IMG/VR virus record: IMGVR_UViG_3300020220_000041
Direction: 5' to 3' (one strand)
Length of the DNA: 64,000 bases
DNA from: a virus
Part shown: positions 10,475 to 49,392 of the stretch, one piece after another
Position numbering within the stretch: the first letter of the stretch is position 1
How the letters are laid out: each line of letters opens with the position of its first letter
Position numbers and translations under genes: made by a program
The notes under the pieces: model-generated
The model's database searches: none
What the model was told of the DNA's origin: nothing
What the model saw: the letters and a program-made list of their open reading frames with translations, nothing else

Positions 10475-10510
10475 CCCTCTCTACGCGGACGGGCTACTCC
10501 TCTGAACCTT
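10475..10510 (-). promoter_or_regulatory. Conserved promoter-like motif: AGGTTCAGA-N14-GCGTAGAGAGG
   Basis: One copy of the recurrent motif, about 20 nt upstream of the ATG at 10464. Confidence 0.5.
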
Positions 10511-11243
10511 CGCCCTTGTCCCCAGTGACGTTGGCCGTGACATCGGGGTCCTGGTCGTAGATCGGCAGGGCACCTTGAGGAAGCGGTTCGACCAGGAACG
10601 CCTTTCGACCCACGGCCCCGTACTCCCGGGACATCAACTCGGGCTGCGGGAGGGACTGCGACTCCAGCATGTCGAACCGGCGGATCTGAAGGCTCGCCAG
10701 GGGCATTGGCTTGAACTCGTGGGTCGCCGGAGGGCGCTCCGGCCAGGGCGGGTGCTCGATGAAGGTGGGCTGGCTGGCCCAGCGGTCGGACAGGCTCCAC
10801 GGGCCGAGAACTTCCCCTGTGGTGGCATCCCTCTCGACCTCGACGTACACTCGCCCAGCGGCCGGGCCGCCCTGCATCGTCCAGTACTCGTAGCGGTACG
10901 TGCGGCCGTCTCGGTGTACGATGCCTTGTTCGTGCTGGTTGTCTGGGCGCTCCATGTCGAACAGCGGGGCCAGCACCCGACGGGCCAGCACCTTGCCCTC
11001 GGCCTTGGCCGCCTCCGCCGCCTTCCGCTCCTGTTCGAGCAGAGTTTCGACAGAAACGTCCGATGTTCCAACCCAGTCGTGTTTGGTGCGTTCCGGGACG
11101 GATTTCAGGGCAATCGTGATGAACTTGAAGCAGTCCGGGCAGTACGTGTCGCTGTTGTACTCCTGGAAGGTCCAGTAGCCGGACATCTGGTAGGAGTACC
11201 GGACGTGGCAGTGGTTGCAGCGGAGTTCGCGAAAGGTGGACAT
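10494..11243 (-). CDS. Hypothetical Zn-ribbon protein
   Basis: The real start is probably the ATG at 11243 (MSTFRELRCNHCHVRYSYQ...). It has a CxxC...CxxC motif. Confidence 0.5.
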   Translation of the reverse strand: MSTFRELRCNHCHVRYSYQMSGYWTFQEYNSDTYCPDCFKFITIALKSVPERTKHDWVGTSDVSVETLLEQERKAAEAAKAEGKVLARRVLAPLFDMERPDNQHEQGIVHRDGRTYRYEYWTMQGGPAAGRVYVEVERDATTGEVLGPWSLSDRWASQPTFIEHPPWPERPPATHEFKPMPLASLQIRRFDMLESQSLPQPELMSREYGAVGRKAFLVEPLPQGALPIYDQDPDVTANVTGDKGEGSEE

Positions 11244-11248
11244 GAGGG

Positions 11249-11461
11249 CTACGAGTCTTGGGGGTTGCGTTTGGAGGAGCGGCACGTTCTGCACCACGCC
11301 TGATCTGCGATCACGTCGACGCCGTTCCTGCCTGCCCCAATCTTCCGCCGCAATCCGAAGTCGTTGATCTCCTTGAGATCGCCGCAACAGGGGCATTTCT
11401 TGTAGGGCTTGCCGTCTCGAAGTTCGTCGATGTGGATGTTGATGGTGTCTCGCACCCCCAC
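11249..11461 (-). CDS. Small Zn-ribbon protein
   Basis: 70 aa with KKCPCCGDL...CRTCRSSKRN. Confidence 0.5.
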   Translation of the reverse strand: MGVRDTINIHIDELRDGKPYKKCPCCGDLKEINDFGLRRKIGAGRNGVDVIADQAWCRTCRSSKRNPQDS

Positions 11462-11498
11462 CTCCAGTGCCTACTCCCCCTACGCAAAAGAGGGGGCG

Positions 11499-12038
11499 TC
11501 ACACCGTGCGGTGGACGCTTTTCTCAGAGGAGAACCCCTCTGGATACCGGGCCTTGAGCTTGGCCGTGTTGCGGTCACACACCAACTGAAGGCTTACGCC
11601 GGCCATTTCAGCGAGGCTGTCCGCCGAACGCAGAACCAGGCCCAGTCCGGAACGAATCCGTTCCACGTCGGCCGGGTGATTGTGCCCGACCACCTTCTTC
11701 AGGTAGTCCGTCACCTTGCCGGCGTTGACGGACAACTCGGTGGCGTGCCCCAGGAAATCGTCCTGTTCCATGGGGACAGCCTCCTTGGGGGGCATCTCGA
11801 TGCTCTCGAGGGAGATGCCCACGACAGAGGCGGTCTCGGCGATGTACCACATGCAGTCGCCGATCTCCTTGATAAGCACGTCCCGCTCGAAGGGTTGCGC
11901 GGCGTTGTGGTGGTACACGAGGTCAAGCACCTCGGCGGCCTCACCCGCCAGCCCCATCCCCGCGACGGCCAGGCGGAGGGTCTTGTCCGCCGTGTGGTTT
12001 GCGGTTCGCAGCGCGTTCGCCTGGTAGTCGTTCAGCAT
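11499..12038 (-). CDS. MazG-like nucleotide pyrophosphohydrolase
   Basis: ANALRTAN...LAVAGMGLAGEAAEVLDLV...EIGDCMWYIA is typical of phage MazG (the EExxE region). Confidence 0.65.
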   Translation of the reverse strand: MLNDYQANALRTANHTADKTLRLAVAGMGLAGEAAEVLDLVYHHNAAQPFERDVLIKEIGDCMWYIAETASVVGISLESIEMPPKEAVPMEQDDFLGHATELSVNAGKVTDYLKKVVGHNHPADVERIRSGLGLVLRSADSLAEMAGVSLQLVCDRNTAKLKARYPEGFSSEKSVHRTV

Positions 12039-12097
12039 GTAGCGTCCTCGAAGTCGATGACTTCTCTATACCGAGGGGGGGTGAGAGGTCTGACCCC

Positions 12098-13342
12098 ATG
12101 TCTGATGCGGCCCTTCGGCACCACCTCATCCGTCTGGCACACGCACATCCCGAAATGCGGCCCGCACTGCTTCCTTTGCTGAGGAGTGCGCGGGAGTTCC
12201 CGAACGAGGAAGCTCGGAAGAAGTACCTCGAGGACCATCCGAACGCGGACCCCGCCAACCACACCGTGGCGAAGCCGGACGACAAGGGCGATGAGGGTGG
12301 GGGCAAGGCCGCCCCGAAGAAGCCCAAGAAGCTGTTCTCGGACGATGAGATGAGCCTCCCCTCGGTGGCTCGTCAGTCTGTGAGCGACCCCGCCAAGCTG
12401 ATGGAGCAGGCCACGGAGGCGCATGAGCAGCAACTCAACTGGCTCAACCACGGCAAGGGTCTCGACAAGGCCGTGGGCGGCAAGGTGATTCGGTGCGATG
12501 AGATCGACTGCACCAAGGCTGGAGCGGTCGACTACGACCAGGAGGGTCCGATCATCGTCATCGGTCCCGTGAAGAAGAAGCACCGGGTCGAGGAGAAGGT
12601 GGAGAAGGACTACGACGGAGACTGGTCTCGCGTCGGCGATCTGGTGCGCTCCACGGTGGCCTTGGACTCGATGGACCAGGTTGAGGAGGTCATGGACAAG
12701 CTGCGGGCCTCTGGGCTCAAGCTCGCCCGTCCTCCCAAGGACCGTTTCGCGAACCCGACGGACGCGGGCTACCGCGACCTGATGATGAACGTGGTGTACC
12801 CCAATGGGCACATAGGGGAGCTTCAGATCCACCTGAAGCCGATTCTGAAGGCCAAGGAAGAAGCTCACGGAGCCTACGAAGAAGTCAGCGCGATCGGAGC
12901 CAAGGCCAAGAAGGAAGGGCGCACCGACTTGACCGACGAAGAAGCCGCCAAGGTGGACGAGGCGATGCAGAAGATGCGCGACATCTACGAAGCCGCGTGG
13001 AAGAAGTCGACCGCCGCGAAGGGTGGCAAGACCGCAGCCGGAGGGCTCAAGCGCATGGCAGCCAAGGTGCAGTACTTCGACCTCGACGGGATGCCCGCAC
13101 TGTGGGAAGCCAAGAAGTTCCCGGTTCGCCTCTCACCGAAAGGCAAGGAGGTCGTGATCTACGAGTTGGACGAGTTCTTCAACCAGGCCACGCCCATCTC
13201 GAAGGACGCCTATGACAAGCTCGTGAAGGAGAACGCCCCGAAGGAGAAGAAACAGAAGGAAGGTTCCCTTCGGCTGGCGACTATCCGTCTGGCACAGACG
13301 AACTCACAGCTTCGCCCACACCTCCTCGCCCTGCTGAAGTAG
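12098..13342 (+). CDS. RelA/SpoT-fold (RSH-like) nucleotidyltransferase with RLAHAHPE terminal motifs
   Basis: GYRDLMMNVVYPNGHIGELQIHLKPI matches the RSH synthetase motif GYxSxHxxV...EIQIRT. Upstream, KHRVEEKVEKDYDGDWSRVGDLVRSTV matches the G-loop/ITDLxGxR region. N-terminus MSDAALRHHLIRLAHAHPEMRPALLPLL and C-terminus LRLATIRLAQTNSQLRPHLLALLK. The ATG is at 12098 with a GAGG RBS. Confidence 0.5.
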   Translation: MSDAALRHHLIRLAHAHPEMRPALLPLLRSAREFPNEEARKKYLEDHPNADPANHTVAKPDDKGDEGGGKAAPKKPKKLFSDDEMSLPSVARQSVSDPAKLMEQATEAHEQQLNWLNHGKGLDKAVGGKVIRCDEIDCTKAGAVDYDQEGPIIVIGPVKKKHRVEEKVEKDYDGDWSRVGDLVRSTVALDSMDQVEEVMDKLRASGLKLARPPKDRFANPTDAGYRDLMMNVVYPNGHIGELQIHLKPILKAKEEAHGAYEEVSAIGAKAKKEGRTDLTDEEAAKVDEAMQKMRDIYEAAWKKSTAAKGGKTAAGGLKRMAAKVQYFDLDGMPALWEAKKFPVRLSPKGKEVVIYELDEFFNQATPISKDAYDKLVKENAPKEKKQKEGSLRLATIRLAQTNSQLRPHLLALLK

Positions 13343-15538: not shown

Positions 15539-15582
15539 GGGTGTCCTCCGATGAGCGAGGGCACCCTACCGAGCGGTCAGGT

Positions 15583-16910: not shown

Positions 16911-16983
16911 GTCAACCTCTACCCCTTTGTACGCGGCTGAAAGCGGATGGGGGAGTGAGGATGTCCCCCACTCCCCCAAGTCT

Positions 16984-17628
16984 TTACGGAACCTCGATGA
17001 AACGCAGGGTTTCCGCGTTGTTGTAGAAGCGGATGCCCATCTCCTCGACATCGCGACCGCTCTGCTCGTGGATGTGTCCGAACAGGTGCGCCACGATGCG
17101 GTGGGGGCGGTAGGAGAGCGCCCGGGTCAGCGGGCGGTTCCCGCAGCCGTGACCCCCACCGTTGTCGTCGTCGAGGATGCCCGCCGCCGGAGCGTGGGTC
17201 ACGAGGATGGTGGGGTCCGCCTCGAACACCCGATCGACCATCGGGCTGAGGTCGTGCTCCTCACCGTTCCACTCACCCGCAATCCAGGGGATCTCCCGCA
17301 TTCCGGCGATACGGTGACCGTCGATCTCGACCGCTTCCACGGTCGCGTCGAAAGCCGCCTCATAGCCGTTCTCCCGGAGAAGCTCGGCGAGGTTCACGTA
17401 GTCGTGGTTGCCGCCCACCCACACCACCGGCTTGCCGCCGAAGCGCGCGATGAGGCTGCCCACAACCTGCTTGAACCAGGCCGCCTGGAAGGCGGGCTCG
17501 ATCTCGCGGTCACCACGAGTCGCATTGGGGAAGAAGTCCCCGCTGCACACCCACACATCGGGAAGCTCGCTCGAGCCGAGGAGCTTGCTGACGTTGCCGT
17601 GAAGGTCGCTGAAGTGCCCGATACGCAT
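16984..17628 (-). CDS. Calcineurin-like metallophosphoesterase
   Basis: MRIGHFSDLHG, GDFF, VGGNHDY and FGHIH motifs. ATG at 17628 with a GGAGAGG RBS. Confidence 0.7.
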   Translation of the reverse strand: MRIGHFSDLHGNVSKLLGSSELPDVWVCSGDFFPNATRGDREIEPAFQAAWFKQVVGSLIARFGGKPVVWVGGNHDYVNLAELLRENGYEAAFDATVEAVEIDGHRIAGMREIPWIAGEWNGEEHDLSPMVDRVFEADPTILVTHAPAAGILDDDNGGGHGCGNRPLTRALSYRPHRIVAHLFGHIHEQSGRDVEEMGIRFYNNAETLRFIEVP

Positions 17629-17644: not shown

Positions 17645-17681
17645 ACCTATACTACGCAGCACCCCCGACGACCTGAACCTT
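17645..17681 (-). promoter_or_regulatory. Conserved promoter-like motif: AGGTTCAGG-N14-GCGTAGTATAGG
   Basis: Full copy, 17 nt upstream of the metallophosphatase start. Confidence 0.5.
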
Positions 17682-17682: not shown

Positions 17683-18498
17683 CTAGAAGTCGTCGTCGGA
17701 GGTCTCGTCCTCGGGCTCCTCGCGGCCGTAGAAGTCGGAGAACTTCGCGGCACCCCCGGCCCGAAGGCCGAAGATGTCGAGGTCGAACACGGCCTGGTAG
17801 CGGTTGGTGCTCGGATACCGGCCTCCGATCTCCTCGCACTTCGCCACCATCCGGCGGTAGTCCTCCACCGTCGGCATCCAGACGAACTGGATGCACTGGT
17901 CGCGACCCGGCTCCGCGTTGTAGCTCGGAATCCGGTTGACCTCGCCCGGCTTCTGCCACCGGTCCTCGGCCTCGAGCCGGATGTCGTCCCGCTTCCGCAG
18001 GATCTCGAGCGCCTTGTCCAGACGGTAGACGGTGTTGTCGAACCGGCCGTCGATGTAGGAGAACCGCATCGCCACGGGGAGCGGGCGCTTGTCCACGTCG
18101 AACAACTGGTGGCTCGAGCCCTGGAAGAACACGATGTCCTGGGCGGTCGCCGACCCCTCCATGAACCGGGTGTAGGGGGTCTTGGAGAGGATCTCGCACT
18201 CCTTGTAGAACTGGTCCGAGCCCCAGCCATACTCACGAGCCAGGGTGAGGAACGCGGGGGTGGCCAGAAGGGCTCCCCACTCCTTCGTGTACGAGGGCAT
18301 GTCCGCAGCCCCCTTCTGGTAAGCCAGGAGTGCCGCCTTCGAGGTGATGCCCTCGGTGACGGTGACGTGCGGCTTCCGACGACCGGACTTCGTGCTCATG
18401 GTGACGCGAAAGACGATCACGTCCTCGTAAACCGCGAGGTACTCGACCACCTTCTCGGTGGTCACGACGGTCTTGGAAGTCATGGTCTGCGGGGTCAT
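17683..18498 (-). CDS. Hypothetical protein
   Basis: 271-aa protein-like ORF with an acidic C-terminus. It is preceded by an AGGTTCAGG -35-like element plus a variant -10 at 18510-18549. Confidence 0.55.
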   Translation of the reverse strand: MTPQTMTSKTVVTTEKVVEYLAVYEDVIVFRVTMSTKSGRRKPHVTVTEGITSKAALLAYQKGAADMPSYTKEWGALLATPAFLTLAREYGWGSDQFYKECEILSKTPYTRFMEGSATAQDIVFFQGSSHQLFDVDKRPLPVAMRFSYIDGRFDNTVYRLDKALEILRKRDDIRLEAEDRWQKPGEVNRIPSYNAEPGRDQCIQFVWMPTVEDYRRMVAKCEEIGGRYPSTNRYQAVFDLDIFGLRAGGAAKFSDFYGREEPEDETSDDDF

Positions 18499-20948: not shown

Positions 20949-21566
20949 ATGCGACAAGCACACACCCTTGCAGAGATTACGTCTGACTTGACCCTTCTGA
21001 ACCTCGGGGGCTGGAACGACCCCATTTTGGTGAGTTGTACTCGATGTGGGGAGACCTGCCCGAAGAAGAAGCACCACATTCGACAAGCAATCAAGGCGAA
21101 ACAAGTGGGGCTGTTCTGCTCGAAATGTCGTGTTGCTTCCTACCGTCGCGAGCAAACACTCGTGGAGCAAGACGGAGAGCAAGGTCGGGTTTGCATCAAG
21201 TGTGGTGTGTGGAAACCGCTCAGAAAGTTCTCTTCGGGTTCTATGTCTCGCACCTGCGCCTACTGTTGGGGTCAGCGTCCGAACATCCGGTTCCACGAGT
21301 ATGAACGCAGGGCCGCGTCAAGGGGGTACCCGTTCTCCCTCACCTTCGAGGAGTTCATGGGGTTCTGGGGGAAACCTTGTTCCTACTGTACAGGGCAAAT
21401 TTCTGGAATCGGCCTCGACCGCATCGACAACGAGAAAGGCTACGCCTTGGACAACGTGACACCCTGTTGTGAGACGTGTAACCGCATGAAACTCCAGATG
21501 GATCGGGCGGAGTTCATACAACATTGCCGTAAGATCGCATCGTCTCACCCCAATGTCGTGGCCTGA
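20949..21566 (+). CDS. HNH endonuclease (AP2-HNH type)
   Basis: GLDRIDNEKGYALDNVTPCCETCNRMK plus an N-terminal Zn-ribbon. Confidence 0.7.
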   Translation: MRQAHTLAEITSDLTLLNLGGWNDPILVSCTRCGETCPKKKHHIRQAIKAKQVGLFCSKCRVASYRREQTLVEQDGEQGRVCIKCGVWKPLRKFSSGSMSRTCAYCWGQRPNIRFHEYERRAASRGYPFSLTFEEFMGFWGKPCSYCTGQISGIGLDRIDNEKGYALDNVTPCCETCNRMKLQMDRAEFIQHCRKIASSHPNVVA

Positions 21567-22108
21567 ACCTGTCGGGCGACAAGAAGTTCCTCGAGCCACT
21601 CGCGGTGGGTCCCAAGCATCCGCACCGGGGCGTACTGGCCCTCGGTCGGGTCGGGGGCGATCTCTTCGCTGGGCCTCCGGGTGTCGGGCTCTGCCACGAG
21701 GAGCTTCGGGTACAGCGTTTCGTACCGGATGAGGAGGGGCACCACCTCGTGCCACCCGCTGATCTGGTAGGGGAGCCACCACTTGTAGCGAGGCCACAGG
21801 ATGCCCCGGTTGGCCTCCATCAAGTAGAAGCGACTCCCGATGAGGCGACCCGTCAGGGTGCCCCGGTCGAAGGGCACATCGACCTTCTGGTGGAGCACGT
21901 CCCGCAGCCCGTCGAGCAGGATGGCGATGGTCTTGGAGTCGCGGGGCATCCACGGCACCTTGTCCGCCCGCACGAGGGTTTCGGTCCTGGAGCCGGGGTT
22001 GTAGAACACGAGGTTGGTGGGGCACACCCGAGAGCGAGTGCGTTGGGCACCCACACAGATGTTGCCGTCCTTGTCGCGGGCTCCGATCACAGCCGGGAAG
22101 TCGAGCAT
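21545..22108 (-). CDS. Hypothetical protein
   Basis: 187-aa protein-like ORF. Confidence 0.5.
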   Translation of the reverse strand: MLDFPAVIGARDKDGNICVGAQRTRSRVCPTNLVFYNPGSRTETLVRADKVPWMPRDSKTIAILLDGLRDVLHQKVDVPFDRGTLTGRLIGSRFYLMEANRGILWPRYKWWLPYQISGWHEVVPLLIRYETLYPKLLVAEPDTRRPSEEIAPDPTEGQYAPVRMLGTHREWLEELLVARQVQATTLG

Positions 22109-22111: not shown

Positions 22112-22342
22112 TCACGCGGCGGGGACGTGGAACAGGCGGCGACCATTGACGGAGATGAGCACCTGCAACCCCTGGGCGTTCACGAACTCGAACCAGCCCT
22201 CGCGGTGGAGCAACACGGGGGTCCAACCCTCGAGGTCGGAGTCCGGGTGGAACGCTTTGGCGGTCCAGAGCGCAGCCAGGGCGTAGGTGTTGACCCGCGT
22301 GCCCGCTGCGATGGGGATGGGAGAAAGTTGAGCGGTCATCAT
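22112..22342 (-). CDS. Hypothetical protein
   Basis: 76-aa ORF. Confidence 0.4.
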   Translation of the reverse strand: MMTAQLSPIPIAAGTRVNTYALAALWTAKAFHPDSDLEGWTPVLLHREGWFEFVNAQGLQVLISVNGRRLFHVPAA

Positions 22343-22394
22343 TGCGACCTCCTCACCTCCCTACGCACCTGGGCCTGAAAGCTGAACCCGCCAG

Positions 22395-22620: not shown

Positions 22621-22896
22621 TTACTTGGAGAAGTACCAGCCGTAGCTGTAGGTCTTGCCGTCTTCGGCGAAGGTCTTGGTCAGGTGGTACACCGTGACCG
22701 GCTCCTCGGACCAGGGAACTCGAACCTCGGCGGTCTTGCTGAAGGTCTGTTCCCCGATGACCGTGCGGACCGTCCCGGAAGCCTCGACCACGTTGCGAAG
22801 CACGCGGTCGTAGGACTTCTGGTGCCAGGGGTCAGCGCCCTGGCAACCACAGTTACAGGGCTCGATCCGCTTCGTGATGGTGGTCTTGGTGCTCAT
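22621..22896 (-). CDS. Hypothetical protein
   Basis: 91 aa. A full promoter-like motif ends 1 nt before its ATG. Confidence 0.5.
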   Translation of the reverse strand: MSTKTTITKRIEPCNCGCQGADPWHQKSYDRVLRNVVEASGTVRTVIGEQTFSKTAEVRVPWSEEPVTVYHLTKTFAEDGKTYSYGWYFSK

Positions 22897-22933
22897 GCCT
22901 CTACTACGCAGAGACGTGCCAGACCTGAACCTC
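22897..22933 (-). promoter_or_regulatory. Conserved promoter-like motif: AGGTTCAGG-N14-GCGTAGTAGAGGC
   Basis: The GAGG of the motif doubles as the RBS. The ATG follows directly. Confidence 0.5.
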
Positions 22934-22946: not shown

Positions 22947-23513
22947 TCAGATCATGCTGTTGAGGATTTCGTCGGCCTTCGCGATCTGCTCGGGGCTCAT
23001 GTAGGGCTTCATCTTGCTCGGGCCGCACTTGTAGGTGCGCCAGGGCTGCCCCTCGGGGCTCACGATGAACGACCGCTTGACCTGGGCGACGACCACGTAG
23101 TTCTTGCCGTAGATACGGCACTTGTCGCCCGGCTTGAAGCTCTTGGACTGCGTACCCTTGCGGGTCTCGGCCACCTCGCGAACCCGCTTCCGCCAGGCCA
23201 CCGCGTAGTCCTCGGTGGGCTCGGTGGTCATGTCGAGGAGTTCGACCGGGCAGTCGATCTCGACCGGCCCCATGAACTCGTCGATCTCTTTCACCGCGTA
23301 GCCGTAGTCCCCGCCCGTGCGGCTGCCCGAGATCAGGTAGAGGATTACGAACTTGAGCTTCGGCGTCTGAATCGCCACCCACAGGTGACGGCCGTAGGAA
23401 GTGCTGCGATGAGCCAACACCACCTGGCCTACGTCAGGGCGGTTGAGGTCGCGGAGAGTTTCCTCGCGCACCGTTGAAGGGGAAGTCCAGTTTGGGGAAG
23501 AAGTCCAGCCCAT
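22947..23513 (-). CDS. Hypothetical protein
   Basis: 188-aa protein-like ORF. Confidence 0.5.
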   Translation of the reverse strand: MGWTSSPNWTSPSTVREETLRDLNRPDVGQVVLAHRSTSYGRHLWVAIQTPKLKFVILYLISGSRTGGDYGYAVKEIDEFMGPVEIDCPVELLDMTTEPTEDYAVAWRKRVREVAETRKGTQSKSFKPGDKCRIYGKNYVVVAQVKRSFIVSPEGQPWRTYKCGPSKMKPYMSPEQIAKADEILNSMI

Positions 23514-23530: not shown

Positions 23531-23567
23531 ACCATTACTACGCAGAGGCCCGGCCAAACTGAACCTC
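23531..23567 (-). promoter_or_regulatory. Conserved promoter-like motif: AGGTTCAGT-N14-GCGTAGTAATGG
   Basis: Full copy upstream of 22947-23513. Confidence 0.5.
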
Positions 23568-34222: not shown

Positions 34223-34241
34223 TATAGGTGAGGAGTAGACC

Positions 34242-35717: not shown

Positions 35718-35754
35718 TTCTGACTACGCAAGTGGGTGGCAGGGCTGAACCTTC
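35718..35754 (-). promoter_or_regulatory. Conserved promoter-like motif: AGGTTCAGC-N14-GCGTAGTCAGAAC
   Basis: Full copy. Confidence 0.5.
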
Positions 35755-37858: not shown

Positions 37859-38095
37859 CTACGCGGAAGCGGCCATCCGGATGAAGGGACCCTGGGTGTC
37901 GAAGGTGATGCGGGTGCCCACCTGGGCCGCCCAGCCGTCACCCGCAGGGGGGACAGGGACACCCGTGATGGTGCCGAACCCACGACCCTTCCAGTTCGGG
38001 TCCATCCCCTCGAACCGCACGGGCACCCACACGGGCACGTCCGCCAGCGAGTTCCGCCAGTCCAGTTCGATCGCACAGCCAGGGGTCAGGTCCAT
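37859..38095 (-). CDS. Hypothetical protein
   Basis: MDLTPGCAIELDWRNS... with a GAGGAG RBS. Confidence 0.45.
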   Translation of the reverse strand: MDLTPGCAIELDWRNSLADVPVWVPVRFEGMDPNWKGRGFGTITGVPVPPAGDGWAAQVGTRITFDTQGPFIRMAASA

Positions 38096-38110: not shown

Positions 38111-38146
38111 TTTGTTATACGCGGCCGGAGAGTCAAGCTGAACCTC
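38111..38146 (-). promoter_or_regulatory. Conserved promoter-like motif: AGGTTCAGC-N14-GCGTATAACAAAGCGAGGAG
   Basis: Full copy. Confidence 0.45.
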
Positions 38147-38585
38147 ACTTGTAGTCGATCTTGGGGATCTCTCCGCCGTCAGAAGGCTCAAAACGACGCT
38201 TGAGCTTCTCATAGAGGAAACGTGCGTAGTTGTCCGAAAGGCTCTTGAAGCGACCTCGAAGTTTCACGGCCATGTCCACGCGGTTGTCCACCTCGTTTCC
38301 ACGAAGGAGATGCTCGGGGTTGGCACAGGAGGGGTTGTCGCAGAGGTGGAGGATGGTGTCCGCTGGAGTGAGCTTCACCCCGTAAACCACCTCATAGACG
38401 ACGCGATGGACATAGAAAGTGCCTTCGGCGAGTCCGATCACGCCTTGCCCGCCCCTAGATTTTGACTTTGCGCCTTTCCAAACCCAACAGTCCCCTTCGG
38501 GCACATCCCAATTCAGTCCGAGCCAGAGCTTCACCTCCAACGGCACCCCGCGTTCCTTGTTCGGCAGCAGTTCCTTGTCCGGCAT
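38145..38585 (-). CDS. HNH endonuclease
   Basis: HLCDNPSCANPEHLLRGNEVDN (HNH_3). Confidence 0.65.
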   Translation of the reverse strand: MPDKELLPNKERGVPLEVKLWLGLNWDVPEGDCWVWKGAKSKSRGGQGVIGLAEGTFYVHRVVYEVVYGVKLTPADTILHLCDNPSCANPEHLLRGNEVDNRVDMAVKLRGRFKSLSDNYARFLYEKLKRRFEPSDGGEIPKIDYK

Positions 38586-39518: not shown

Positions 39519-40418
39519 TCAAGCGGCTTCGGCGTTCTGCTCCTCTTCTTCGTCTTCCGCACCCGCGTTCAGGATGAGGTCAACTGCCTGCTGTGCCGCC
39601 CGAGCGGCCCCAAACACTGCATACTTGTCCCCTCGAAGCACCTTCAACCAGTGGGCCAGGTAGTTCGGGTGTTGCAGATCACCCTCAACTCCGAGATGAG
39701 CACACAGGAAGGCCGCGCCGATTTCGGCCACCAGTTCCTCCATCGCGTAGGCATCCGAGCCGAACCTGTTCTTGAGGTCTCGGTTCAACCTGCCTTCGGC
39801 TCCAGTCCAGTGGAGCGTTTCGTGCGCCCGGGTCGCCAAGTAGTTCTCGATCGTGTGGAACTGCTCGACGTTGGGGAGGCGAATGCAGTCCTCGGCCGGG
39901 GAATAGCAGGCGTGATCACCACCGTGACGGACATCAGCCCCCACAGCTTCGAGTACCGTCATCGCTTCCGTGTGGGTGCCCGCCAGGTGGATCGAAGGGG
40001 CGACTTCCCCCACATCAGCAGGCAGACCTTCTACTTGTTCCCGGTTAAAGACAGTAAAGACGCGGAGGAGCGGGATCTTCTTGCCCGTCTCGACGCCCTC
40101 GACCTTTTCGGGGATGAACTGCCAGTAGACGATCTTCGTGCCCTTCTCGCCCTTGCGGACGTTCGCACCGAGATCCTTGGCCTGGTTGAAGGTGTACCAG
40201 CGGGCGTCGCTGTAGCCCGCGATGGCGAGCAACCAGATGTTGAGGCCGTTGTAGTGCCGACCCGACTTGCCGTTGCGGGGCATGCCGTTGATGCCCATGG
40301 ACTTCCAGGGCTTCGACCACTCCCCGGGGCCGGCTTCGAGGGCCGCGACGATGCGGTCGGTCACGTCCTGGTACCAGTCGTTCTTGGGGGCGGTGGTGGT
40401 CTTGGTGCTGCGGGCCAT
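39519..40418 (-). CDS. ardC: ArdC-like antirestriction protein
   Basis: N-terminal ssDNA-binding region (KPW...NGxxYxGxN...) plus a C-terminal zincin HExxH (ATRAHETLHWTGA). Confidence 0.7.
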   Translation of the reverse strand: MARSTKTTTAPKNDWYQDVTDRIVAALEAGPGEWSKPWKSMGINGMPRNGKSGRHYNGLNIWLLAIAGYSDARWYTFNQAKDLGANVRKGEKGTKIVYWQFIPEKVEGVETGKKIPLLRVFTVFNREQVEGLPADVGEVAPSIHLAGTHTEAMTVLEAVGADVRHGGDHACYSPAEDCIRLPNVEQFHTIENYLATRAHETLHWTGAEGRLNRDLKNRFGSDAYAMEELVAEIGAAFLCAHLGVEGDLQHPNYLAHWLKVLRGDKYAVFGAARAAQQAVDLILNAGAEDEEEEQNAEAA

Positions 40419-40435: not shown

Positions 40436-40472
40436 ACCCGTACTACGCGGGGCACCCGACGACCTGAACCTT
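40436..40472 (-). promoter_or_regulatory. Conserved promoter-like motif: AGGTTCAGG-N14-GCGTAGTACGGG
   Basis: Full copy upstream of ardC. Confidence 0.5.
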
Positions 40473-40644
40473 ATCCGTGAAGTCCTGCATCACATTTCTC
40501 ATCTTCAGTGGCCCCGCAGATTGGGCACCGGATGTCTCTGGAGTCCACATCGGCCACATGGGCGAGGAAGGGCTCCCAGTCGTTGGTGAGCCACATCCAC
40601 CACGCCCGCCACCACGGGATGTCCACCTGTTGAATGACAGCCAT
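40471..40644 (-). CDS. Small Trp-rich Zn-ribbon protein (57 aa, not in the ORF track)
   Basis: ATG with a GGAGAGG RBS. MAVIQQVDIPWWRAWWMWLTNDWEPF...CPICG. Confidence 0.4.
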   Translation of the reverse strand: MAVIQQVDIPWWRAWWMWLTNDWEPFLAHVADVDSRDIRCPICGATEDEKCDAGLHG

Positions 40645-40718
40645 GAAGAACCTCTCCGTCCTCCCTACGCGGTAGGGAGGACTCGCTGAGCCCCGCGTAG
40701 GGTGGGTAGGAGATTCTG

Positions 40719-41525
40719 ATGAGCCACCCGCTTCAGCGTGCCAGTGAGTCCCGCGACCTCGAGGAGTTCCTCAACCTTGCGTTCCCGTCCGACTGGGGCG
40801 GCATCGCAGCCCGCATCGTCGAGACAGGGGCGGAGATGTCCGTCGAGAAGTGCGGTTGGGCACCCCGGTGGTCGAAGATTCCGCCCACCGTTCGTAAAGG
40901 GTCCGCCTCGATCGAGACGGCGGCCAAGTCCGTGATCTTCCGGGTTCACGACTGCCTGCACCAGTTGTGGGGGCTCCCCCACCCGGGCTCGTTCAGCGAG
41001 GACGACTTCTACTACTACAAGCGTGCCCAGATGTGCGGTGAGGTGGCCGTTCTCACGCTCACCGAGTTCGTCTACTGCGACTACCTGCGGCGGCAGTATC
41101 CCGAGCTTGCTCCTCTGATCTGGAGCCGCAACGCCATCCCCCTTCTGGAGGGTCCGATGGCGGGCAAGAGTACGGAGCAAGTCGCGATGAGGCTCGACGA
41201 CCTACTCCACAAGAAAAGCCGTCCGAAGTGGGTTCGAGAGAACCCCATCGCCCTCGCGTTCGTCGAGGACTACGTGCCCATGTTGGAGCGAGATCGCGAG
41301 CAGATCGACCTGAACTGGGCGGCCATGAAGGCGGCGAACTGGCTTCCCGAGGGGGCACCCAAGGCCAAGTTCGGTCCGAGTCTGGATGGGCTCGAACTCA
41401 CCGTGTGGATGATCCGCGACTTCGAGCACCTGATCTCGTCGTCGCCCGACATCGATCGTGCTTTGGCGGCCTTCAACCGGGAAAGGCGTGCCCGTCTCGT
41501 CCTTCCGCCTGGATGGGCCAGTTGA
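40719..41525 (+). CDS. Hypothetical protein
   Basis: 268-aa ORF preceded by GCGTAGGGTGGGTAGGAG. Confidence 0.5.
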   Translation: MSHPLQRASESRDLEEFLNLAFPSDWGGIAARIVETGAEMSVEKCGWAPRWSKIPPTVRKGSASIETAAKSVIFRVHDCLHQLWGLPHPGSFSEDDFYYYKRAQMCGEVAVLTLTEFVYCDYLRRQYPELAPLIWSRNAIPLLEGPMAGKSTEQVAMRLDDLLHKKSRPKWVRENPIALAFVEDYVPMLERDREQIDLNWAAMKAANWLPEGAPKAKFGPSLDGLELTVWMIRDFEHLISSSPDIDRALAAFNRERRARLVLPPGWAS

Positions 41526-42989: not shown

Positions 42990-43060
42990 ACGAGTAGCCC
43001 TCTACACCCACTACCCGGATTCGGTGGTCTGCCTATCCCCTACTTCAGGAGAGGGAATCC

Positions 43061-43558
43061 ATGCCGAACCAACCTTTGAGTACACGCCCAGACTACGGAA
43101 AGGGTGACGCCGCACTCCCTCGGGGTGCGGATTCTTCCAAGCCGTCGGCGGCTCGTGTCGCCGAGAGGTTCAGGTCGGCCGCTGTGGCGCGTAGTCTCCC
43201 CAAGGAGGCTGCCATGAGCGCACTCGATGGGATGTCCAAGCGCAAGGCGAAGGATGTGGTCAATCGGCTGATGGATCCCCACACCAAGGGGATGTTCCGC
43301 GACAAGTACTGGACTCCGATCAACGCCATCTGGAAGGCGCTCGAGACGCAGAACATCTCGTTTGCCCGCACGGACTCGAAATACGAGTACGACGACCCCC
43401 GGAGCAATGGCCCGTCCCGTAAGGTGTGGTGGTTCGTGGTCGACTTCCGCAATGATCGGGGCCACGAGGACACGTTGTATGGGCGAATCACGGCGGCGGG
43501 CGCGGGACCGGTCCACGATCTCCTCGAAGTCTACGACGTGACTGCCTACGTCTCCTGA
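43061..43558 (+). CDS. Hypothetical protein
   Basis: 165 aa. This is the first gene of the long plus-strand block. Confidence 0.5.
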   Translation: MPNQPLSTRPDYGKGDAALPRGADSSKPSAARVAERFRSAAVARSLPKEAAMSALDGMSKRKAKDVVNRLMDPHTKGMFRDKYWTPINAIWKALETQNISFARTDSKYEYDDPRSNGPSRKVWWFVVDFRNDRGHEDTLYGRITAAGAGPVHDLLEVYDVTAYVS

Positions 43559-43806
43559 GGAGCCCTCTGATGGCACGGACATCGGACAGGCTGACCTCGC
43601 CACCCTCTACTCGAGCAAGGACGAGGCGTTGAAGGCCGTGCTCCTCCACGCGAACGAGGCCCTGACGAAGTGGAAGCTGCCCGACGAGGAGGCGGACATT
43701 CCCGAGGAGTCTCTCTGGACCCGGTGGTTCGGCCGCAAGGCCGACTTGTCTGAGTAGACAGATCGCGCTTGTCTCGGCAGACAAGCCACATTTTCTTTCG
43801 CCCGAC

Positions 43807-43842
43807 AGGTTCAGGAACCCCCCTCTCTTGCGTAGTAGAGGT
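43807..43842 (+). promoter_or_regulatory. Conserved promoter-like motif: AGGTTCAGG-N14-GCGTAGTAGAGG
   Basis: Plus-strand copy, 15 nt before an AGGAGG RBS and the ATG at 43857. Confidence 0.5.
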
Positions 43843-43856: not shown

Positions 43857-44444
43857 ATGTCGCTTCGCAACGTGATGTACTGGTTCAACCAGGTTCCCCT
43901 CGTCCCCCGCTTCGTGGGTCGGGGGAAGTCCCGGCGCGAAGTCGAGTACAACGGGCCGACCCAGGCGGCCATCCTCGTCCGGGACGGCTCCCTCGTCCAC
44001 ATCGACTTCAAGGTGCCGACGGACCGTGCCCGAGCCGCTGCGACCTGGGAGCAGTACGTGGGTCACGTCATCCTCGTCCCGGCCTCGGGCCAGTGGAGCG
44101 GCGAGGGTCCGCATCCGATCCAGCCCTCGTGGACGGTTCGGGTGAGCGGCTTCAACACGCCGGAGGAGGCCGCCTCGGCTCTCCGCCGCGACATCGCCAA
44201 GGCGAAGGCGGACGAAGAGGCCATCCAGGGGGACCCGGCGGCTCACCTCGAGCGGGAACTGGCGGGGCATGACTGGACGGCAGCCTACAGCGACTCCCCC
44301 GGGGTGAGTTCCGCAGCGGACCGCCACTGGAGCATCATCCAGGCGCTTCGGGCCAAGGTCGCCCCCGAGGTCTACGAAGCCCTCCTGGTGAAGTACAACC
44401 CGTGGCTCAACGGACAGGTTCAGGAGACGCCCTCTCCCGCGTAG
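43857..44444 (+). CDS. Hypothetical protein
   Basis: 195-aa ORF. Confidence 0.5.
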   Translation: MSLRNVMYWFNQVPLVPRFVGRGKSRREVEYNGPTQAAILVRDGSLVHIDFKVPTDRARAAATWEQYVGHVILVPASGQWSGEGPHPIQPSWTVRVSGFNTPEEAASALRRDIAKAKADEEAIQGDPAAHLERELAGHDWTAAYSDSPGVSSAADRHWSIIQALRAKVAPEVYEALLVKYNPWLNGQVQETPSPA

Positions 44445-44456
44445 TCGCTATAGAGG
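44415..44456 (+). promoter_or_regulatory. Conserved promoter-like motif: AGGTTCAGG-N14-GCGTAGTCGCTATAGAGG
   Basis: Embedded in the 3' end of the upstream gene. The TAG stop lies inside the GCGTAG. Confidence 0.5.
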
Positions 44457-44463: not shown

Positions 44464-44655
44464 ATGAAGCGTCATCTGGAAGCTCGCGTTCATCGGACCC
44501 GGGGAGGTCATGCCGCCAACCTGGTCCTGGCCCGCATCGAGGAGATGTCGGAGGCAGAGGCGGAGCAGTGGTTCCGCCTCTTTCAGAACGTGGAGGAGGA
44601 CGCGAAGCGAGATGGAGAGCGGAAGGGCGCTCGGGAGCCCTGGCGTCGTTGGTGA
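44464..44655 (+). CDS. Small hypothetical protein
   Basis: 63 aa. Confidence 0.4.
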   Translation: MKRHLEARVHRTRGGHAANLVLARIEEMSEAEAEQWFRLFQNVEEDAKRDGERKGAREPWRRW

Positions 44656-45181: not shown

Positions 45182-45946
45182 ATGAAGAACGACTCCCTGG
45201 GCGACCGCATGAAGCGGTACGAGTTGGCTGGACGACAGCTTCTTGTGCCTCGAACCCCGGTCATCGCGCGCATCGACGGTAGGGCCTTCCACACCTTCAC
45301 GAAGGGGTGTGCTCGTCCCTACGACGAGGATCTGCACGCCTGTATGTGGGAAGCAGCCAAGGCGGTTGCGGCCGACATCGCGGGTTGCCGGCTGGCCTAC
45401 GTCCAGTCGGACGAGATCAGCCTGCTCCTGGTGGACTACGAGTCGAACGCCTCCCAGGCGCACTTCGACTACGAGGTGCCGAAGCTGACCTCGACGGCGG
45501 CGGCCACGGCGTCCGTGACGTTCCTCGTCGAGTTCCTCAACCGGTTCCCGGACCGTCGGGACCGGCTCATGTCGAAGCGGGGGCTCCCGACGTTCGACGC
45601 GAGGTTCTACAACGTTCCTCGAGAGGATGTGGACAACTACTTCCTGTGGCGACAGCGGGACGCGGAGCGGAACTCGCTGACGATGCAGGCCCAGGCGCAC
45701 TACTCCCACAAGGAACTTCACGGGAAGTCTCGTGCGGAGAGGCACGACCTCTTGCACGCCAAGGGCATCAACTGGAACGACCTCCCCACTCCTCGGAAGC
45801 GGGGGGTGTGCGTGGTCCGCGAGACCTATCAGAAGGGGGAGGGCCTGCGCTCTCGGTGGACTGTGGATGAGGACATCCCGATCTTCTCGACCCCCGAAGG
45901 CCGTCAGTACCTCGAACGCTTCGTGAATCCCCCTGCTTCTTCGTGA
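45182..45946 (+). CDS. Thg1-like protein (tRNA-His guanylyltransferase family, 3'-5' nucleotide addition)
   Basis: VIARIDGRAFHTFTKGCARPYDEDL and AYVQSDEISLLL match the Thg1 catalytic carboxylate motifs. Confidence 0.65.
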   Translation: MKNDSLGDRMKRYELAGRQLLVPRTPVIARIDGRAFHTFTKGCARPYDEDLHACMWEAAKAVAADIAGCRLAYVQSDEISLLLVDYESNASQAHFDYEVPKLTSTAAATASVTFLVEFLNRFPDRRDRLMSKRGLPTFDARFYNVPREDVDNYFLWRQRDAERNSLTMQAQAHYSHKELHGKSRAERHDLLHAKGINWNDLPTPRKRGVCVVRETYQKGEGLRSRWTVDEDIPIFSTPEGRQYLERFVNPPASS

Positions 45947-46386
45947 ATGGAGGTCTCGTGCAAGCCCACCTTGATGTGCCAGAGGAGTTCTGGCAGGCCC
46001 TGTACAAAGGCACCGTCCTCTGGGACGACCGGTCTGGGGCTTCCATCTGTCGATACGCGCTCCACGAACTCTACGTGGACCTGTTCGTCGACACGACGGG
46101 CCTTCAGCCGCCCGCCGAAGGTCCGCCCAAGGGCACACGCCACCTTCAGGTCAAGGCACAGTCTCCCGAGGAGGAGAGGCGGTGGGAGGCGTTGATTGCC
46201 CGCTACGGCTCGGGGTCGAAAGCCCTTGGAGTCGCGGTGCGGCATCTTCACGACTCCCTCTACTACGTCGATCCCTCACAAGAGCCGGAGCCGGAGCCCG
46301 CGAAGGTGACCTCGAAGGAAGTCTCCCAGTGGCGGAAGAAGCGGGCTGTGTCGAAGAAGGTTCAGACCGGCAGGGGTCGAGCGTAG
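45943..46386 (+). CDS. Hypothetical protein
   Basis: GTGA overlap with the Thg1-like stop. 147 aa. Confidence 0.45.
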   Translation: MNGGLVQAHLDVPEEFWQALYKGTVLWDDRSGASICRYALHELYVDLFVDTTGLQPPAEGPPKGTRHLQVKAQSPEEERRWEALIARYGSGSKALGVAVRHLHDSLYYVDPSQEPEPEPAKVTSKEVSQWRKKRAVSKKVQTGRGRA

Positions 46387-46399
46387 GGGGTGTAGGAGG
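46357..46399 (+). promoter_or_regulatory. Conserved promoter-like motif: AGGTTCAGA-N14-GCGTAGGGGGTGTAGGAGG
   Basis: Full copy ending in the RBS of the 46404 gene. Confidence 0.5.
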
Positions 46400-46403
46400 A
46401 GCG

Positions 46404-46769
46404 ATGCCCACCACAACCCCCACGACGATCGAGACGGACGGCAGGCTCCTGAAGGACATCTGTGCGGACATCCGTGCTGTCCTTCAGGCCGAGGATCTTC
46501 TCGACGACAGCTTCGGGCTGGCCCCGCTCATCGGCATGGACAGCGCGCAGTACAACAGCCGTCGTTGGCCGACCCGCTATCAGTGGGTGTCGGTGTTCGT
46601 CGTCACGGGCGGCTCGGAGGGGCACTACCTCCACGTCGAGATCATCACCCCGCCCACGAACCCGCGAGAGCAGGGTCCTCGTGAGATGGTGTTCCTCGCC
46701 AAGACCTTCATGGGTTGGGACTACGCCTGGCGTCAGGCCAAGCGCGTAGCCGAGCTTTTGGGGGCGTGA
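46404..46769 (+). CDS. Hypothetical protein
   Basis: MPTTTPTTIETDGRLLKD..., with an AGGAGGA RBS. Confidence 0.5.
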   Translation: MPTTTPTTIETDGRLLKDICADIRAVLQAEDLLDDSFGLAPLIGMDSAQYNSRRWPTRYQWVSVFVVTGGSEGHYLHVEIITPPTNPREQGPREMVFLAKTFMGWDYAWRQAKRVAELLGA

Positions 46770-47397: not shown

Positions 47398-47406
47398 AGG
47401 CCGGTC

Positions 47407-48021
47407 ATGTCCTTGTTTCTCACCAATCTCCGAGAGGCTCTTCGCAACGCAACGGTGGACGAGATCGTGGAGGCGTTGGCCTCGGCGGAGGAGCATCGTC
47501 CCGGGCTCGCCTACGAGGTGGGGATTCGCCTGTGGGAGCGGGATGTCTCGAAGGAGTTCCCCGGCCCGAACCCGTTCGACCACAACCCGAAGTCGGCGGA
47601 CAGGGGCGCGGTGCTCGCTGTGGCCTATGACCCGGCTCGTCGAGAGGAAGCCATCACGGGCTACCGCATCCTCTGCAACAACCCGATCCCCAGCTACGAT
47701 GAGAACGACCCGAAGTGGTTGAAGGCCCCGAAGGCGGAGCGTCGAGCCGCCAAGAGGGCTGTGGAGGAGTGGGCCCTGCCGAACCGCGACCGGGCACCCG
47801 TGTTCATCGCAACCCTCGACCAGGCGATGTCGGACACCAACATCCACCACAGGATCCGGGTTCACACCTACACCGATGCCCCAAGGAGCCGTGCCGAGGC
47901 CGAAGCTCTCCAGGCGAAGTGGGCCATGTACGGCGTCGTGACCATCATCGAAGGGTTCGAGGAGCCGGACAGGAGCCATCGACGGTCGATGCGGGACCTC
48001 TCTGCGGGCCCTGTCGGGTAG
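47407..48021 (+). CDS. Hypothetical protein
   Basis: 204 aa. Confidence 0.5.
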   Translation: MSLFLTNLREALRNATVDEIVEALASAEEHRPGLAYEVGIRLWERDVSKEFPGPNPFDHNPKSADRGAVLAVAYDPARREEAITGYRILCNNPIPSYDENDPKWLKAPKAERRAAKRAVEEWALPNRDRAPVFIATLDQAMSDTNIHHRIRVHTYTDAPRSRAEAEALQAKWAMYGVVTIIEGFEEPDRSHRRSMRDLSAGPVG

Positions 48022-48029
48022 GGGTCACC

Positions 48030-48647
48030 ATGAACAAGAATCTCAAGGTCGCCGAGCAGATGCTAGGCGAGGTCAGCGCGAACTGGTCGTGTCGGAGCAA
48101 GGAAGACTTCTTGGCGGCTGTCCGAGCCGCCTCGATGCTCTTGGACGGGTACGAACCCGTGGCCCTTCCCACAGACCCCTGGCTTCGAGCCATGGCTCCG
48201 AAGCCGGAAGAGGCGCGAAGGGTGCTCCAAGAGCCCCTCTCCCGGAATCCGGACGACCTCTACAAGTCCAACCTCATGGAGGTGGTCGGTCGTGCCCTGG
48301 GCTTCTTGCGGGGGTACGAACTGCCCAAGAACGTGCTTTCCAAGTACAAGTGCTCCTTCTGCGGGGCTTCCCACGTCAAGCTCTGGCGGGGCATCGGCTC
48401 AGCCCAGGAAGCCTGGTGCTCGAAGTGCGCGATGGCTCAAGCGGGTTTCCACGACACCATCGACGACGAGGGGATGCACATCGCGGAGTTCTCTGGACGG
48501 GCGGATGGGCGTTCGGACCAGATTTACAACTCCAAGAAGGGTCAGAACCTGCTTCCGTGGGTGCCCGCTCCCGATGGGGAGACGTGGGGCTACACCTCGG
48601 TGCCGCCCGAGGGTTGTGAGTGGTGGCGGGCCGTTCCGACTCGGTAG
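48030..48647 (+). CDS. Hypothetical Cys-containing protein
   Basis: Internal ATG of the track ORF. MNKNLKVAEQMLGEV...CSFCGASH...CSKCAM. Confidence 0.5.
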   Translation: MNKNLKVAEQMLGEVSANWSCRSKEDFLAAVRAASMLLDGYEPVALPTDPWLRAMAPKPEEARRVLQEPLSRNPDDLYKSNLMEVVGRALGFLRGYELPKNVLSKYKCSFCGASHVKLWRGIGSAQEAWCSKCAMAQAGFHDTIDDEGMHIAEFSGRADGRSDQIYNSKKGQNLLPWVPAPDGETWGYTSVPPEGCEWWRAVPTR

Positions 48648-48651
48648 TCGA

Positions 48652-49326
48652 TCAGGAGAACGCCCGGAACGTCACCGAGATCCGCCGCTTCTTGAACCGT
48701 GCAAAGTGGGGGACCTCGTGTGTCACCGCCAGGTTGGTCTCCCACGGCAGTATGACCACGTCTCCGTGCCCCACCTCCAAATCGAAGCACCCTCCAGGAG
48801 CCCGGAACGGCCGTAGCCGGAACACTCGCTCTCCTCCAAGGGACATCGTGACGATCGGGGAGCCGGGGATCAGTCCGATCGTGGAGTCCCGGTGTTTCCC
48901 GATGTAGTGCTCGAGTCCCGGGTCGTACCAGTTCAACAGGGGCGCATCCAACCTCGGATGAAGTCCCTGTGCCCACTCCACGAACGGCCCCAAGGCCGCC
49001 GGAGTCGGCAACGCCTGGTTCCGCTGTCCCGAGAACACGTAGTCGCGGTGGTACGCCTGCTGCCACCTCGGAAGGTTGGTCGGCGTGCTGTACATCATGA
49101 TCGACGGGAAGTGGTCGGGATGAAGGTCCCACAACTCGTCGAAGTCGCACCCAGCCAACTCGTCGGGGATCCGACCCACCCACACCTTGTGGCCGTTCTG
49201 CACCTGGACGGCCCGGAAGTCTTTGTTGGTCCGCGCGACAGGCCAGGGCCGTTCGCCCCCAGGTTCGGGTGGCCTCAACCCAGCAAGCTGCTCCAGAAAG
49301 TCGTCTTCCACAACACTCTCCTCCAA
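48652..49326 (-). CDS. AlkB-like 2OG-Fe(II) dioxygenase
   Basis: YDPGLEHYIGKHRDSTIGLIPGSPIVTMSLGGERVFRL ... GDVVILPWETNLAVTHEV (HxD...H and the RxS context). Confidence 0.6.
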   Translation of the reverse strand: MEESVVEDDFLEQLAGLRPPEPGGERPWPVARTNKDFRAVQVQNGHKVWVGRIPDELAGCDFDELWDLHPDHFPSIMMYSTPTNLPRWQQAYHRDYVFSGQRNQALPTPAALGPFVEWAQGLHPRLDAPLLNWYDPGLEHYIGKHRDSTIGLIPGSPIVTMSLGGERVFRLRPFRAPGGCFDLEVGHGDVVILPWETNLAVTHEVPHFARFKKRRISVTFRAFS

Positions 49327-49354
49327 CCTCGGCCCACACCCTTCCTACACGTTG

Positions 49355-49392
49355 ACGGTTCAGGTTTCTCCCCCCTGCGCGTAGGTGGGGGA
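49355..49392 (+). promoter_or_regulatory. Conserved promoter-like motif: CGGTTCAGG-N14-GCGCGTAGGTGGGGGAGG
   Basis: Full copy upstream of the macro-domain gene. Confidence 0.5.

Follow-up and report, generated by a model that had tools for sequence, protein, structure and literature searches.

A two-box element repeated upstream of genes in an uncultivated large-phage lineage: a probable promoter family and a candidate phage sigma factor to read it

What is the function of a short sequence that stands, almost unchanged, in front of one phage gene after another, and which protein would read it? The question is raised by a stretch of 64,000 nucleotides (nt) from the IMG/VR virus record IMGVR_UViG_3300020220_000041, hereafter called the window, for which an earlier note had listed at least 13 near-identical copies of a motif of about 40 base pairs (bp) and had proposed a phage-specific promoter family. 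Our analysis defines the element as (A)GGTTCAG(G)-N15-GCGTAG(TA), with 18 full copies in the window. Judging from sequence comparisons, we consider it highly likely that this element is a promoter, and on balance we lean towards an RpoD-like sigma factor of the phage as the protein that reads it.

All 13 copies of the earlier list are present within a few bases of the positions given there, 12 of them as full copies, while the one near 18510 has a second box reading GCGCAA. The list was incomplete, as six full copies had been missed, with their first G at 22388(-), 34195(+), 40692(-), 43167(+), 45147(+) and 54024(+). Besides the full copies, two that have decayed or been split are present in the window, along with about nine half-copies in which GCGTAG is the only box left. 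Five of the half-copies noted before are in place, the one at 16930 reads GCGTAC instead, and three more were found. These numbers are far above expectation: a search with the full pattern and up to three mismatches gave 7 matches against 0.00 expected, and for GCGTAGTA 7 occurrences compare with an expectation of 0.23. When the window was scored with a weight matrix derived from both boxes, 18 sites exceeded 21 bits and none fell between 10 and 21 bits, with a maximum of 14.2 bits over 50 shuffles; the information content of both boxes together is about 24 bits.

The geometry of the element is rigid. Even when spacings of 13-19 nt were permitted, GGTTCAG and GCGTAG were separated by exactly 15 nt at every window site with a gene start behind it (18 of 18), and the spacing does not vary in a pooled set of sites from the window and related loci (76 of 76). 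This is the same as the 17 nt between TTCAGG and TAGnnn that had been likened to the spacing of -35 and -10 elements, a likeness that stands: the two conserved blocks of the motif keep a constant distance from each other, one that suits sigma regions 4 and 2 (about 17 ± 1 nt between hexamers).

Its placement relative to genes is equally regular. Genes were taken from rough calls made in this analysis (80 genes covering 81% of the window), to which a 57-residue open reading frame (ORF) at 40471-40644, skipped by the gene caller, was added as the gene behind the 40692(-) copy. As had been claimed, the motif always points towards the downstream gene: at each of the 18 sites, GCGTAG is followed on its own strand by a start codon after 7-28 nt. 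Within the 60 nt upstream of a gene on its sense strand fall 23 of the 43 occurrences of GCGTAG (1.6 expected) and 18 of the 25 occurrences of GGTTCAG (0.94 expected), and in the window phage and its relatives the motif directly precedes about a quarter of the genes. Four window sites are situated in divergent junctions without any co-oriented gene upstream; if the decayed copy at 18547 is counted, the motif is found at 5 of the 7 divergent junctions, on one side or both. Some details of the earlier description need correction. The element is only partly intergenic, as the end of the upstream ORF extends over its first box and, at four sites, over the motif as a whole. Its TAG serves as the stop codon of the upstream gene at 4 of the 18 sites, for which ‘often’ was an overstatement. 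The idea that the GAGG of the motif doubles as the Shine-Dalgarno sequence must be restricted, since at most sites a separate Shine-Dalgarno sequence follows 5-12 nt after GCGTAG; only at 22931(-) and 45147(+) does the ATG follow after just 7 nt.

The motif is not confined to this record. When metagenomes were scanned with the pattern in a 17-base form, 67 loci were obtained, referred to here by L numbers, from several unrelated metagenome projects, and several copies per locus are common at loci with 60-67% G+C. Seven loci derive from a single contig of 165,875 bp, ERZ1066135.22, about 80% identical to the window, and four of these seven, L052, L053, L064 and L078, are 79-84% identical to parts of the window. 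Six others (L014, L022, L025, L028, L042 and L066) were rejected as relatives, representing one conserved bacterial locus that contains the exact 17-base pattern by chance; this locus, with a sulfite or nitrite reductase and TusA as well as a catalase-peroxidase, recurs in several peat or bog metagenomes and gives rise to false positives when the motif is searched for. Combining the window and the related loci gave 76 non-redundant sites with the consensus gAGGTTCAGGt-N13-yGCGTAGTAnGGGyrt..GGAGG and a start codon mostly 15-26 nt after GCGTAG. The outside sites were retrieved with the core pattern, which leaves only the flanking and spacer columns unbiased. Across 15 orthologous pairs, identity amounts to 0.94 in the first box and 0.90 in the second, as compared to 0.55 in the spacer and 0.62 upstream of the motif, a distribution that suggests selection on the boxes only and not on the spacer. 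A scan of bacterial and archaeal genomes (one genome for each of 185,579 species) produced only 16 single matches, scattered over unrelated genomes that differ in base composition, and the motif is thus no general bacterial signal. A literature search on the two box sequences led to unrelated papers only.

Does the element act on transcription or on translation? In two related loci, a copy is found 11-12 nt upstream of a transfer RNA (tRNA) gene with the anticodon CUA (L031, tRNA at 10581-10656, and L038, tRNA at 4032-4107), and the element is therefore independent of a ribosome-binding site or a start codon. Folding of the 76 sites revealed no pair kept in register, with a top mean pair probability of 0.07, and Rfam identified tRNAs only in the window and no family at the motif. 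The copy at the tRNA gene and the lack of RNA structure in register thus argue that the element acts on transcription, not translation. As a separate observation, the tRNA behind the motif in these two loci is of the amber-suppressor type, TAG is the stop codon in 30 of the 80 window gene calls, and TAG is built into the motif.

But which factor would recognize such a promoter? Pfam detected neither a sigma factor nor an RNA polymerase in the 64-kilobase (kb) window. A local search of all related loci with sequences of RpoD, RpoE and SigF as queries yielded one strong match among phage-related loci, an RpoD-like ORF cut by the end of L061 (E = 7.5e-29). L061 is part of the 165,875-bp contig, which also holds regions 79-84% identical to the window. 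The sigma factor comprises 269 residues, scores best against primary-type RpoD and has a match to region 1.2; its relatives in the databases have 260-294 residues and the sigma regions 1.2, 2, 3 and 4. An ortholog with 78% identity, P0004, is encoded on L096, a 17-kb contig with two motif copies that stems from the lake samples of the window and shows synteny with L061 (80-88% identity). There, the sigma gene adjoins genes for an intein-bearing primase and a family A DNA polymerase; the intein of the primase (L096:7534-9306) contains a LAGLIDADG domain. Because L096 shares its samples with the window and is syntenic with L061, the phage of the window very probably encodes this sigma factor outside the window. 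The earlier note had suspected a dedicated phage sigma factor and had advised searching for one or for an RNA polymerase. The lineage does possess an RpoD-like sigma factor, found on the 165,875-bp relative and on the same-sample contig rather than in the window, and it is a candidate reader of the motif.

The distribution of sigma factors in more distant contigs suggests that the motif and the sigma type travel together. On L100 and L101, whose sigma factors are 57% and 60% identical, the order of sigma, primase and polymerase genes persists together with the motif, the first box of which varies to GATTCAG, and L106 (53% identical) has one TTCAG-N15-GTGTAG copy. Between regions 2.4 and 3.0, the sigma factors of these three contigs have in common a one-residue deletion and the sequence QAD. 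The sigma factor of L105 (51% identical) has neither, and no motif copy is present in the 20 kb of this contig. The full motif is missing upstream of the sigma gene itself, where only GGGTAGAAC is found. No sigma factor in 50,697 deposited phage records exceeds 42% identity to that of the phage lineage.

Taken together, we propose a family of phage promoters for a bacterial-type RNA polymerase with a sigma-70-family factor, likeliest the 269-residue sigma factor of the phage on the host core enzyme. In this model, AGGTTCAGGT, at about -38 to -29, would be read by sigma region 4.2, GCG at -15 to -13 would be an extended -10 element contacted by region 3.0, TAGTA at -12 to -8 would be read by region 2, and the G-rich run (GGG) at -6 to -4 would form a discriminator contacted by region 1.2. 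Transcription would start at the Shine-Dalgarno sequence or just ahead of it, approximately 6-9 nt past the second box, resulting in leaders of roughly 12-20 nt; the sites at 22931 and 45147 would give rise to nearly leaderless messenger RNA (mRNA) or use another register of the boxes. The assignment of boxes to regions builds on established knowledge of sigma-70 factors, and the identity of the sigma factor, the register and the start site are all ones we infer. That the element is a promoter at all, as suggested before, is well supported by the invariant spacing, the co-orientation, the marked divergent junctions, the conservation of the boxes without the spacer and the copy before the tRNA gene.

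Several points weigh against the proposal that the phage sigma factor reads the motif. The second box has no T at -7 (A14 C23 G29 T10 over the 76 sites), although this T is near universal in the -10 elements of primary sigma factors; in the TAGTAn register the A at -11 is invariant and lacks its partner at -7, and no other register yields A-N3-T. The first box shares only three of the six positions with TTGACA. The sigma factor keeps TRERVRQI and YASWWIRQAMTR, which we take to be the residues by which primary sigma factors read the -35 and -10 boxes, and therefore nothing in its sequence predicts this motif. The genes behind the motif include those for ArdC-like, macro-domain, PARP-like and beta-lactamase-fold proteins, and phages often express such genes early, ahead of any phage sigma factor. 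With regard to the timing of expression, virion genes were not found behind motif copies, but the loci had been chosen for carrying the motif. Furthermore, the sigma gene lies outside the window, its membership in the same genome being deduced from shared samples and a parallel similarity to one long contig, and the association between motif and sigma type is drawn from five contigs and may be due to nothing more than common ancestry. More tentatively, the sigma factor may have a novel specificity that ignores the T at -7 and instead reads the 8-bp GCGTAGTA, the GGG discriminator and AGGTTCAGGT. The one-residue deletion of the clade and an arginine-to-aspartate change between regions 2.4 and 3.0 might explain such a specificity, and the site-specific pairing of the spacer with the sequence behind the second box would then be part of promoter opening or insulation.

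Since many genes behind the motif look like early or host-takeover genes, the main rival is a family of early promoters read by the host sigma factor, as in phage T4, with the phage sigma factor serving another class, for instance a GGGTAG-type element (see below) or late genes outside the window. The spacing would suit any sigma-70-type factor, the genes concerned appear to function in anti-restriction, ADP-ribosylation and other aspects of host takeover and include tRNAs, the DNA-reading residues of the phage sigma factor match those of primary sigma factors, and L105 has a related sigma factor without the one-residue deletion and no motif copy. We take this explanation seriously, yet consider it unlikely in view of the missing T at -7, the mere 16 single matches in the bacterial and archaeal genome collection, and a scan of 16 kb for canonical sigma-70 promoters. 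The scan found 1 site against 1.3 expected and none at the motif, which speaks against canonical sigma-70 promoters at the motif sites, even if the consensus used may not be that of the host. It is improbable that the host sigma factor reads the second box only and that a phage activator bound to AGGTTCAGGT replaces recognition of the -35 element, in the way MotA and AsiA act at T4 middle promoters. A first box of about 10 bp, unlike a canonical -35 element, and the half-copies with only the second box upstream of other genes would be in line with an activator, but Pfam revealed no MotA- or AsiA-like protein in the window, and such a takeover is unnecessary because the phage lineage encodes a complete sigma factor with region 4.

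Two further explanations give the motif a role other than that of a promoter, and we give very little credence to either. A repressor could bind the element, as at the stoperators of Cluster A mycobacteriophages or at another operator that blocks transcription into the downstream gene. The many copies, oriented with transcription in short gaps between genes, do resemble stoperators. However, the element consists of two different boxes with 15 unconserved bases between them and not of one site of 13-14 bp, it marks divergent junctions and precedes a tRNA gene in relatives, and Pfam showed no repressor or integrase family or other sign of lysogeny in the window; the repressor/stoperator system offered earlier as an option finds no support on these grounds. 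The other explanation is a role of the motif at the RNA level, whether for processing, for stabilisation by a hairpin or, in the 5' leader, for translation. It draws on one result: the spacer pairs better with the 24 nt after GCGTAG of its own site than with those of other sites (mean folding energy of -13.2 versus -11.5 kcal/mol, about 7 standard deviations at a standard deviation of the permutation mean of 0.24). The stems vary by site, and some sites have no stable hairpin. We also considered that the C-rich spacer hides the Shine-Dalgarno sequence in read-through RNA, and rejected this idea: the unpaired probability of the Shine-Dalgarno sequence is 0.452 in read-through RNA versus 0.489 with swapped spacers and 0.475 in short transcripts, neither difference being significant. 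With the Shine-Dalgarno sequence no more hidden than in the controls, no pair in register, conserved parts that are sequence blocks rather than stems, a copy before a tRNA gene and no match in Rfam, an action in RNA is hard to sustain, and a promoter is the explanation we prefer.

The individual copies are listed in the table below.

Table. Copies of the two-box element in the window, with full copies defined by a matrix score above 21 bits and distances counted from GCGTAG to the start codon
Feature	Position	Strand	Context
Half-copy, GCGTAG box only	302-307	-	
Half-copy, GCGTAG box only	2855-2862	-	
Half-copy, GCGTAG box only	4713-4718	-	
Full copy	10479-10509	-	30.5 bits; 16 nt upstream of ATG of ORF 10138-10464
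Half-copy, GCGTAG box only	11480-11485	-	
Half-copy reading GCGTAC	16929-16934	-	
Full consensus copy	17650-17680	-	23 nt upstream of metallophosphatase gene 16984-17628
Decayed copy: first box perfect, second box GCGCAA	18518-18548	-	Upstream of ORF 17683-18498
First box of split copy	21562-21570	-	Second box parted by ~540-bp insertion (about 21003-21554); intact in L064 (alignment)
Full copy GGGTTCAG...GCGTAGGG	22359-22389	-	18 nt upstream of ORF 22112-22342; conserved in L064
Full consensus copy	22902-22932	-	ATG of ORF 22621-22896 7 nt after GCGTAG; same geometry in L064 ortholog
Full copy	23536-23566	-	Divergent junction of genes 22947-23513(-) and 23627-24958(+)
Full consensus copy	34194-34224	+	TAG is stop of SNF2 helicase gene; 19 nt upstream of ORF 34242-34538
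Full copy	34875-34905	-	TAG is stop of ORF 34877-35695; 21 nt upstream of ORF 34535-34855
Full copy	35722-35752	-	28 nt upstream of ORF 34877-35695
Half-copy, GCGTAG box only	36010-36015	-	
Half-copy, GCGTAG box only	37859-37864	-	
Copy, second box GCGTAT	38115-38145	-	21 nt upstream of ORF 37859-38095
Full copy	40441-40471	-	24 nt upstream of ArdC-like gene 39519-40418
Weaker copy GGGCTCAG...GCGTAG	40663-40693	-	Divergent junction; 20 nt upstream of 57-residue ORF 40471-40644
Half-copy GCGTAGGGT, without first box	40695-40700	+	Upstream of ORF 40719-41525
Full copy	43166-43196	+	Divergent junction; 19 nt upstream of ORF 43214-43558; conserved in L052
Full consensus copy	43807-43837	+	21 nt upstream of ORF 43857-44444; terminator-like hairpin 43767-43786 just before
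Full copy	44416-44446	+	TAG is stop of ORF 43857-44444; 19 nt upstream of ORF 44464-44655
Copy, second box GCGTAA	45146-45176	+	ATG of Thg1-like gene 45182-45946 7 nt after second box
Full copy	46358-46388	+	TAG is stop of ORF 45958-46386; 17 nt upstream of ORF 46404-46769
Full copy	49356-49386	+	Divergent junction; 21 nt upstream of macro-domain gene 49406-50002
Half-copy, GCGTAG box only	52701-52706	+	
Full copy	54023-54053	+	24 nt upstream of ORF 54076-54627

Comparison with the related loci adds detail to some of these copies. In L053, the ortholog of the copy before the metallophosphatase gene keeps both boxes and has three changes in the spacer, and the ortholog of the copy that has decayed at 18547 is perfect, with an intact GCGTAG in the corresponding position. 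The mRNA from the copy at 22902-22932 may be leaderless. The insertion that splits the copy at 21562 is absent from the related contig and bears an ORF of 205 residues on the opposite strand, at 20949-21566(+). This ORF contains the HNH-like sequence GLDRIDNEKGY...CCETCNRMK, without a Pfam match at 1e-4, and resembles a homing endonuclease gene. Upstream of genes, a second and weaker element with the sequence GGGTAG or GGGTAA also recurs, for example at 15560-15580(-), 42990-43020(-), 55020-55030(+) and 56090-56110(+), with 7 of its 29 copies within the 60 nt upstream of a gene on the sense strand versus 1.1 expected. About half of its copies consist of a glycine codon and the TAG stop of the upstream gene. 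It is also found upstream of the sigma gene and is the chief recurring upstream element in the more distant sigma-bearing contigs L105 and L106.

What kind of genome does the window belong to? Its G+C content is 63%, and neither its DNA nor its proteins have a match among the deposited phage records. Look-ups of exact proteins led to freshwater lake metagenomes (JGI samples 3300020214 and 3300020193, both from Lake Tanganyika, and 3300021092, plus several sequencing runs), and a viral contig collection contributed just L001, with a 33%-identical relative of the helicase, and L002, a chance tandem repeat. According to Pfam, the window encodes a UvrD helicase with an intein, an SNF2 helicase, a class II aminoacyl-tRNA synthetase, a glutamine synthetase, ThyX-like, MazG, Thg1, IF-1 and ArdC proteins, macro-domain, flotillin and ADP-ribosylglycohydrolase proteins, HNH endonucleases, and a match to the C-terminal domain of a phage depolymerase; positions 935-1935 contain six tRNA genes. 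This content fits a piece of a large phage genome, though virion genes are absent from the window.

The UvrD-like helicase gene (25774-30306(+)) carries its intein with Hint and Intein_splicing matches, and HNH-type endonuclease-like ORFs are located at 38145-38585(-), 50471-50689(+), 53324-53947(+) and 55529-56140(-), two of them with matches to Pfam HNH_3 and the rest recognised only by a common LDR(I/V)D...CN..K sequence. Three neighbouring proteins (12098-13342(+), 23627-24958(+) and 25026-25748(+)) share a near-identical N-terminal start of about 28 residues (MSDAALR..LIRLAHA.PE.RP..LPLL), and two of them are also similar at the C-terminal end. For an ORF of 66 residues at 35782-35982(-), similarity to family A DNA polymerase is limited to a short stretch from the interior of the polymerase (E = 2.6e-16). 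This ORF is perhaps only a fragment of a gene, with the full polymerase of the lineage encoded elsewhere, on L096.

Finally, we would like to relate the element to systems that have been described before. Phage-specific promoter families are well known in kind. The present work adds a precise definition of the proposed promoter and a sigma factor that may match it, both from an uncultivated clade of large phages. Members of this clade turn up in various metagenome projects, among them ones on lakes and groundwater, and the deposited phage records contain no close relative. With the motif, transcription units can be marked, and pieces of these genomes can be recognised in metagenomes. If the phage sigma factor does read the motif, the two would constitute a new orthogonal set of sigma factor and promoters and a case of -10 recognition without a T at -7.

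Repeated motifs upstream of phage genes are known from several settings that differ from the one described here. The hairpin promoter of the virion polymerase of phage N4 has a stem of 5-7 bp and a loop of 3 nt at a fixed place, whereas no fixed hairpin is present at our sites. Cluster A stoperators and the start-associated sequences of Cluster K are likewise repeated, orientation-locked short motifs just upstream of many phage genes. The former are single asymmetric sites of 13-14 bp bound by the immunity repressor, in contrast to the two boxes found here. The latter contain the ribosome-binding site and lie 3-8 bp from the start codons of protein genes only, whereas our motif is followed by a distinct Shine-Dalgarno sequence and stands before a tRNA gene as well. 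Promoters of extracytoplasmic function (ECF, group 4) sigma factors have an AAC-type -35 and a CGT-type -10 element; a CGT is contained in GCGTAG, but the first box is TTCAG, and ECF sigma factors have regions 2 and 4 only, whereas the sole sigma factor found here also has regions 1.2 and 3. The consensus of sigma-28 promoters is TAAA-N15-GCCGATAA, and that of sigma-B and sigma-F promoters is GTTT-N12-17-GGGTAT. These group-3 promoters have a geometry similar to that of our element, in which a long second box that begins with G and C, GCGTAGTA, follows 15 nt after a short first box. The box sequences differ, however, and the phage sigma factor is a primary-type RpoD with region 1.2.

The early promoters of phage T4 are, like the element described here, a high-information family, longer than the host consensus and placed before many small early genes and tRNA genes, but they have a canonical TATAAT with the T at -7 that our motif lacks. 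The middle promoters read by gp28 of phage SPO1 and the promoters read by gp36 of phage phiEco32 also consist of many near-identical two-box sites outside the host consensus, paired with a sigma-70-family factor in the phage. Unlike a minimal or ECF-like factor, the candidate presented here is a full RpoD-like protein extending from region 1.2 to region 4.2, and its reading of the motif is a proposal.

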